A DNA stretch of 2,009 nucleotides from Escherichia coli (GTDB lineage: Bacteria; Pseudomonadota; Gammaproteobacteria; Enterobacterales; Enterobacteriaceae). A program made the position numbers and the translations under genes. Below, in pieces: positions 331-1,062 of the stretch. Under the pieces are notes generated by a model. The model was not told the DNA's origin. It searched no databases and saw only the letters and a list, made by a program, of their open reading frames with translations. Where the stretch lies: assembly GCF_003334355.1 (NCBI RefSeq), contig NZ_QOWP01000078.1. One strand, written 5' to 3'. Positions within the stretch are counted from its first letter, which is position 1, and each line of letters opens with the position of its first letter.

Positions 331-444
331 ATGAACAGCATACTGATAATCACATCTCTCCTTATCATATTCAGCATTTTTAGTCATGCCCTAATAAAAT
401 TAGGGATTGGCATATCCAATAACCCAGACAAAACCGATGTATAA
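331..444 (+). CDS. Candidate small ORF, 37 aa, hydrophobic N-terminus (possible small membrane peptide or upstream leader peptide); could be a chance ORF in AT-rich DNA
   Basis: ATG 331 preceded by GAGG (323-326) at a 4-nt spacing; translation [37 protein letters not shown], stop TAA at 442-444. Residues 4-18 form a signal-peptide- or transmembrane-like hydrophobic stretch. Below the size cutoff of the supplied ORF track. AT-rich DNA yields Ile/Leu/Phe-rich frames by chance, hence the low confidence. Confidence 0.2.
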
Positions 445-512
445 GTCAACATATCCTGAATCAGACATACAATATCGCAATGAAAATCAATAATATTTTA
501 AGGAATATCTTC

Positions 513-746
513 ATGAAATCAAAAGACACCCTAAAGTGGTTCCCTGCGCAGCTTCCTGAAGTAAGAATTATCCTAGGGAATGCTGTAGTGGAAGTAGCAA
601 AACAGGGAAGACCTATCAATACCAGAACATTGCTTGATTACATTGAAGGAAACATAAAGAAAAAATCATGGCTGGATAACAAAGAATTATTACAAACAGC
701 GATATCAGTTCTTAAAGACAACCAAAATTTAAATGGTAAAATGTAA
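513..746 (+). CDS. ydfK: Small 77-aa prophage-borne protein of unknown function, YdfK/YnaE-like (cold-shock-associated small protein of cryptic prophages Qin/Rac, recalled from memory). The ORF track starts at ATG 480 (88 aa), but ATG 513 is the more likely start.
   Basis: Open frame 480-746 with in-frame ATG at 513 preceded by AAGGA (500-504) at an 8-nt spacing; ATG 480 has no recognisable Shine-Dalgarno. From 513 the product is exactly 77 aa (MKSKDTLKWFPAQLPEVRIILGNAVVEVAK...). Position directly upstream of a Pin-like recombinase matches the ydfK-pinQ / ynaE-pinR arrangement as I remember it. No recognisable catalytic or DNA-binding motif. Confidence 0.6.
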   Translation: MKSKDTLKWFPAQLPEVRIILGNAVVEVAKQGRPINTRTLLDYIEGNIKKKSWLDNKELLQTAISVLKDNQNLNGKM

Positions 747-925: not shown

Positions 926-1062
926 GGTCTCACCAAAATTACGGGGTTGCATACGCATTCGTTTATTTTCGAACGTGTACATACAAATATGCACAAAAAT
1001 AATCAAAATTATTTTCTGCGATGCATTATGATATGAACACCAATTTCGTATAGAGTCTCACT

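Follow-up and report, generated by a model that had tools for sequence, protein, structure and literature searches.

Translation of the prophage gene ydfK/ynaE very probably starts at the second of two in-frame ATG codons

Escherichia coli K-12 carries two copies of a small cold shock gene in cryptic prophages, ynaE (b1375) in Rac and ydfK (b1544) in Qin. The flanks of these copies are those of the locus described here, namely ynaM or ynfT upstream and pinR or pinQ, followed by tfaR or tfaQ, downstream. The ynaM-ynaE (Rac) and ynfT-ydfK (Qin) regions of K-12 are themselves about 99% identical. The YcgZ, YmgA and AriR (YmgB) proteins are of similar size (78 to 90 amino acids [aa]) and have an ilGxAv...g..in..L motif in common with YdfK; the ycgZ operon is cold-induced. 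Mis-annotation caused by the choice of the longest open reading frame (ORF), put right afterwards through curation or proteomics, is well documented, and the 88-aa ydfK product in older E. coli records is a textbook case with nothing distinctive about it. Genuine N-terminal extensions are also known, and those detected by Ribo-RET (Meydan et al., bioRxiv 10.1101/520783) likewise consist of an in-frame upstream ATG with no stop codon before the main start. We have analysed an E. coli locus in which the same choice between two ATGs arises, and our results make it very probable that translation of ydfK/ynaE starts at the downstream codon, ATG 513, and that the upstream ATG 480 is an incidental feature, specific to the E. 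coli lineage, which gives rise to no detectable protein.

The stretch of DNA analysed (2,009 nucleotides [nt]; hereafter, the window) comprises ynaM, ydfK/ynaE, pinR and part of tfaR, and represents the end of a cryptic E. coli prophage of the Rac/Qin type. It matches thousands of E. coli chromosomes, with identities of up to 99.9 to 100%, and at this level are chromosomes annotated with "cold shock protein YdfK" at this place; in the RefSeq record of strain 165 the region adjoins uspF/ompN, which is the Rac-type position. Positions 280 to 800 are 99% identical to both K-12 copies, with both ATGs and the Shine-Dalgarno (SD) sequence included. The differences are allelic only; the window allele is WP_000836772.1, and its protein differs from K-12 YdfK solely by N23 in place of D23. 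These identities agree with the original prediction, made from the letters of the sequence, that the small gene is a YdfK/YnaE gene of 77 codons. The features to which we refer are as follows.

331..444, plus strand: ynaM, directly 5' of ydfK, encoding a 37-aa hydrophobic small protein of the YnaM/YnfT family (from the ORF and the RefSeq annotation).
445..512, plus strand: spacer or leader of 68 nt between the ynaM stop and the ydfK start, 72% A+T and unstructured.
446..473, plus strand: putative promoter-like element TCAACA-16-TACAAT, from a consensus scan (9 of 12 matches); the 5' end of a transcript would fall near 480.
480..482, plus strand: upstream in-frame ATG without an SD sequence, judged to be incidental and not a functional start.
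499..504, plus strand: SD sequence UAAGGA, of which 500 to 504 are the AAGGA originally noted, with an 8-nt spacer (505 to 512) to ATG 513.
513..515, plus strand: start codon of ydfK/ynaE, on the basis of the RefSeq and K-12 start, an invariant Met, top-down mass spectrometry (MS) and the alignment to PHROG 2718.
513..746, plus strand: ydfK/ynaE coding sequence (CDS), 77 aa, a predicted three-helix protein of the cold shock protein YdfK family (Pfam PF27475, YnaE).
1063-1653: pinR, from the annotation of RefSeq strain 165.
Minus strand: 3' part of tfaR, from the annotation of RefSeq strain 165.

The gene upstream of ydfK is well supported in its own right. YnaM matches NCBIfam NF041477 with 63.9 bits (cut-off, 35), its start codon is preceded by a GAGG SD sequence (-5.9 kcal/mol), and the protein has been seen by chromosomal tagging (PMC6001520). 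The ynaM and ydfK genes are adjacent in E. coli (window 331-746, plus strand), in Salmonella (L004, 1313-1734) and in a 53%-identical metagenomic relative (L011, about 1404-1767), an arrangement that suggests a two-gene unit. In the metagenomic relative, only 22 nt separate the stop codon of the ynaM-like gene from the start of the ydfK-like one. In Salmonella, a second YnaE paralogue of 70 aa and a 137-aa gene are also present just upstream.

As originally predicted, ATG 480 and ATG 513 are both present and in the same frame, with no stop codon between them. The ORF at 480..746 encodes 88 aa, beginning MKINNILRNIF-MKSKDTL, while translation from ATG 513 gives 77 aa. We assessed ribosome-binding signals by pairing the region from -20 to -3 of all 28 plus-strand ATGs of the window with the 3' end of 16S rRNA (ACCUCCUUA). 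ATG 513 ranked first of the 28, with a 6-bp duplex of -6.1 kcal/mol, whereas ATG 480 ranked 25th, with a value of +0.4 kcal/mol, and no anti-SD complementarity was found in the 18 nt upstream of this codon (AUCAGACAUACAAUAUCG). A canonical SD-led start has such complementarity 5 to 10 nt upstream; this is the case for ATG 513 and not for ATG 480, and the earlier statement that only the downstream codon has an SD sequence at good spacing is borne out. When the 68-nt spacer between ynaM and ydfK was shuffled 5000 times with dinucleotides preserved, 22% of the shuffles had an upstream in-frame ATG with no intervening stop, and the occurrence of ATG 480 is thus no more than chance provides.

One alternative is that ATG 513 is the main start but a small share of ribosomes begin at ATG 480, either because S1 mediates their binding to the A/U-rich leader or because they re-initiate after terminating at the stop codon of ynaM, 36 nt upstream. 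This would yield small amounts of an 88-aa isoform whose N-terminal tail is hydrophobic. Downstream of the ynaM stop, ATG 480 is the AUG encountered first, and as both ATGs lie in an unstructured leader of high A+T content, it is physically accessible. Folding of positions 445 to 580 gave no stable structure (minimum free energy z = 0.49); because the leader lacks significant structure, accessibility does not discriminate between the two codons. The absence of an SD sequence at ATG 480 counts against such dual initiation, which, with the comparative and protein evidence below, we consider very unlikely.

Orthologues were examined for conservation of the upstream start and its frame, and ATG 480 fails this test in both Salmonella and the Enterobacter-type loci. 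In Salmonella (86% aa identity), the codon corresponding to ATG 480 reads ATC and the frame is displaced by an insertion of 2 nt. A TAA is also present in frame, 9 codons ahead of the start, and no start codon separates the two; this organism cannot make the extension, a further point against dual initiation. Salmonella does retain a GAGGA SD sequence and a start codon aligned with ATG 513. In the Enterobacter-type loci (about 65% identity), the gene is preceded by unrelated sequence; ATGATG occurs in tandem at the start of some of them, and in one (L032) the equivalent is ATAATG, so that only the codon aligned with ATG 513 is left. The Met at codon 513 is invariant in 14 homologues of 70 to 78 aa, down to 29% identity. 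Database homologues of the 88-aa query have coverage confined to its 77-aa part, and in the 88-aa translation it is residues 12-88 that the whole of the PHROG 2718 profile (1-77 of 77) matches (E = 9.1e-47). The protein that starts at ATG 513 has the family N-terminus, M-K/N-x-x-D/N-T-L-x-W/C-x-P, in which Met1 and Pro11 are invariant across the 14-sequence alignment. PF27475 was precomputed on all of the homologues and called genes; a local Pfam-A scan gave no match, and that copy of Pfam-A probably lacks this family.

Within E. coli, ATG 480 and its open frame are kept in every E. coli-type allele examined. This would be expected if some ribosomes used the codon, but the alleles are at least 96% identical and the observation carries little weight. 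Three polymorphisms occur among these alleles at 483-512, one synonymous and two non-synonymous in the frame of the extension (I to T and N to D); they give no apparent sign of coding constraint, although three are too few for a test, and the two amino acid changes do not favour a translated extension. The 53%-identical metagenomic relative offers an apparent counter-example. Its 88-aa product (P0076, encoded on L011), as called by a metagenome gene finder, likewise begins at an ATG that is in frame and exactly 11 codons ahead of the conserved start, with the similar translation MIINNRLKINK. We rejected P0076 as evidence for a conserved extension. Its upstream ATG falls within the ynaM-like ORF, at the 3' end of the latter, and lacks an SD sequence, and the equivalent 33 nt in Salmonella are conserved but out of frame and without an ATG. 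In a three-way alignment of E. coli, L011 and Salmonella, the 33-nt block that precedes the start shows nucleotide-level conservation. Because the Salmonella block is out of frame and has no ATG, the 33 nt between the ATGs appear, from the alignment, to be conserved as a translation-initiation region and not as codons. P0009, an E. coli variant whose N-terminus differs, is a junction adjoining an integrase gene and was uninformative.

Conservation across the leader is uneven. Identity between E. coli and Salmonella is 74% at 445-463, 29% at 464-482 and 78% at 483-512, compared to 88% for the first 48 nt of the CDS; the segment 464-482, which holds ATG 480 and the -10 of the promoter-like element, is the least conserved of the leader. 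One conserved block (445-463, ACAT-TCCTGAAT) directly follows the ynaM stop, and the other (483-512) lies beyond the divergent segment.

The promoter-like element raises another possibility, in which TCAACA-16-TACAAT (446-473) starts an RNA at about A480 and AUG 480 is 5'-terminal on a leaderless transcript. Leaderless translation is relatively favoured in the cold, and the -10-like hexamer ends 6 nt before A480. YdfK and YnaE are, moreover, cold-induced (PMC5594050, PMC10654059). Several observations argue against this explanation. The promoter-like match is near background frequency in this AT-rich window, which contains 10 sites of this quality where shuffles contain 5.5 +/- 2.4. Both the -10 hexamer and ATG 480 are in the least conserved segment, TACAAT being TACCTT in Salmonella and the ATG being ATC. 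The conserved pairing of ynaM with ydfK suggests co-transcription from upstream of ynaM, neither K-12 locus has an entry in the Cappable-seq or SMRT-Cappable-seq tables of transcription start sites that were examined, and the protein detected in cold-stored cells is the 77-aa form. A leaderless message starting at ATG 480 is therefore extremely unlikely. A broader version, that ATG 480 is used conditionally (e.g., in the cold) and in E. coli only, via either a leaderless transcript or re-initiation after ynaM, has a very slim chance of being correct; if true, there would be an 88-aa isoform with an MKINNILRNIF tail and a prophage gene would encode two proteins.

Other regulatory elements were sought in the window. 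The promoter hexamers given for ynaE and ydfK by Shimada et al. 2014 are absent from this window's leader. A promoter-like TGTACA-16-AATAAT is present upstream of pinR (976-1003, plus strand), and this hexamer pair is the predicted constitutive sigma-70 promoter of pinR/pinQ in the same study. An Rfam scan of the window (E <= 1) found nothing in the ydfK leader and no cspA-type thermoregulator. The sole match was to RF02111 (IS009, a candidate small RNA) at 1785-1983 on the minus strand; it is full-length, scores 220.9 bits against a gathering score of 117, and falls wholly within the 3' part of the tfaR tail-fibre-assembly CDS. The cold box is a motif of the form TGACGTACAGA. With up to 3 mismatches allowed, it had 6 matches in the window against 3.4 expected, none of them on the plus strand of the leader, and it was rejected as a candidate element.

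Direct evidence for the N-terminus comes from published work. One study by top-down LESA MS observed YdfK in BL21 at 8772.78 Da (-2.2 ppm) and YnaE in K-12 at 8745.75 Da (-0.6 ppm), with no modification listed for either protein (PMC5594050). Its supplement gives YdfK fragment ions b7 = 804.428 and b8 = 932.522, assigned against MKSKDTLKWF... (PMC5594050). The values that we calculated from the K-12 sequences for the two possible products are as follows.

77 aa (MKSKDTL...): YdfK 8772.798 Da, YnaE 8745.751 Da; b7 804.428, b8 932.523.
88 aa (MKINNIL...): YdfK 10129.57 Da, YnaE 10102.52 Da; b7 827.481.

The published intact masses are within 0.6 to 2.2 ppm of the 77-aa forms with Met retained, and the 88-aa forms do not fit. 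That the initiator Met is kept in front of Lys fits the known specificity of methionine aminopeptidase. The N-terminal proteomics suggested as a check with the original prediction is therefore already available, and the b7 and b8 ions together with the intact mass place the N-terminus at codon 513. YdfK and YnaE were seen in that study after refrigeration (PMC5594050), and in another they were captured at 16 C and not at 37 C (PMC10654059). After cold storage, no species other than the 77-aa one was reported by top-down MS, which speaks against dual initiation, with the reservation that the MS was not designed for a minor 10.1-kDa species.

Neither ydfK nor ynaE is mentioned in the papers on start-site ribosome profiling and N-terminomics, and they are not named among the extension cases in the main text of Meydan et al. 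(bioRxiv 10.1101/520783). There was no start-codon peak for ynaM in Ribo-RET or Onc112 profiling, though the tagged protein is fairly abundant. Reads from the near-identical Rac and Qin copies would probably map to both, and short-read data may be unreliable for these loci. Unlike the genuine extensions detected by Ribo-RET, ATG 480 has no SD sequence, is not conserved and has no protein evidence.

The annotation history of the gene is consistent with these results. RefSeq/PGAP and K-12 MG1655 both use the equivalent of ATG 513 and give 77 aa, the K-12 protein accessions being at version.2, and other newer records do the same; comparison of annotated starts, also proposed at the outset, thus points to the downstream codon. 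The expectation that longest-ORF annotation would over-extend the gene is correct for older records and for metagenome gene callers, but not for current PGAP. Exact 88-aa sequences have been deposited for W3110 (BAE76419.1), DH10B (ACB02594.1 and ACB02753.1), HS (ABV05955.1), CFT073 (AAN81595.1) and HMP strains. By exact-sequence look-up, the 88-aa translations of three queried alleles are found on 154, 18 and 4 contigs, with 12 for the CFT073-type member, and the 77-aa forms of three alleles are each on at least 1000 contigs. A start at the second ATG is already known and curated, and the locus represents an ordinary annotation ambiguity that has already been resolved.

For initiation at ATG 513, we propose that the 30S subunit would be placed by pairing of UAAGGA (499-504) with the 3' end of 16S rRNA, 8 nt upstream of the start codon. 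This would be ordinary SD-dependent initiation in an open, unstructured and A/U-rich leader, and the leader would probably act as an S1/SD-type initiation region. The product is the 77-aa protein with a deformylated initiator Met, kept as expected with Lys at residue 2. Transcription would probably come from a promoter common to ynaM and ydfK, because the pairing of these genes is conserved in E. coli, Salmonella and the metagenomic relative. We would expect initiation at ATG 480 to be negligible in vivo under all conditions.

The structural prediction also bears on the extension. An AlphaFold model of YdfK, built with the 14-sequence alignment and of moderate confidence (mean pLDDT, 76.8), has helices at 15-30, 37-51 and 53-75. 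As residues 1-5 are of low confidence and helix 1 begins at about residue 15, the predicted fold needs no N-terminal extension, a further consideration against an 88-aa isoform. A Foldseek search of the PDB ranked 2oxl_A (AriR/YmgB) first, with a probability of 1.00 and TM scores of 0.70 (query) and 0.85 (target); superposition on the model gave an rmsd of 1.5 A over 59 columns, and the next match had a TM score of 0.36. The three-helix fold of AriR/YmgB (2OXL) is thus also that of the modelled YdfK. The sequence signals are weak and fall short of all curated thresholds, but they agree with one another. YdfK scores 16.3 bits against NCBIfam YcgZ_fam (cut-off, 80), the top match of a PDB profile search was 2oxl_A with E = 0.09, and hhalign probabilities were 11%, 28% and 54%, all over one motif. 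The genomic context, at a prophage end, also differs from that of YcgZ/YmgA/AriR. From the model and the sequence signals, YdfK/YnaE and the small connector proteins YcgZ/YmgA/AriR (YmgB) may be remotely related; a literature search found no paper linking YdfK/YnaE with AriR/YmgB. Family members are also found outside prophages. In L013-L015 (834-1052, 1501-1731), a YnaE-family gene adjoins a divergent cold-shock-domain (PF00313) gene, and in L016-L018 (314-502, 1057-1290, 1501-1737), two YnaE paralogues are in tandem, L018 also having a YmcF-like gene nearby.

In summary, the choice of start codon at this locus matters little in itself, as RefSeq/PGAP and the K-12 reference annotation already give the correct 77-aa product and published top-down MS confirms it. 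The locus is a clear illustration of the over-extension of small genes in A/T-rich prophage DNA when the longest ORF is called, with 88-aa entries persisting in older GenBank records and metagenome gene calls. It also shows that start-codon questions of this kind can be settled by the SD signal, comparison across species and intact-mass data. For the family, the AriR/YmgB fold could suggest a regulatory-connector role for the uncharacterised cold-shock proteins YdfK and YnaE.
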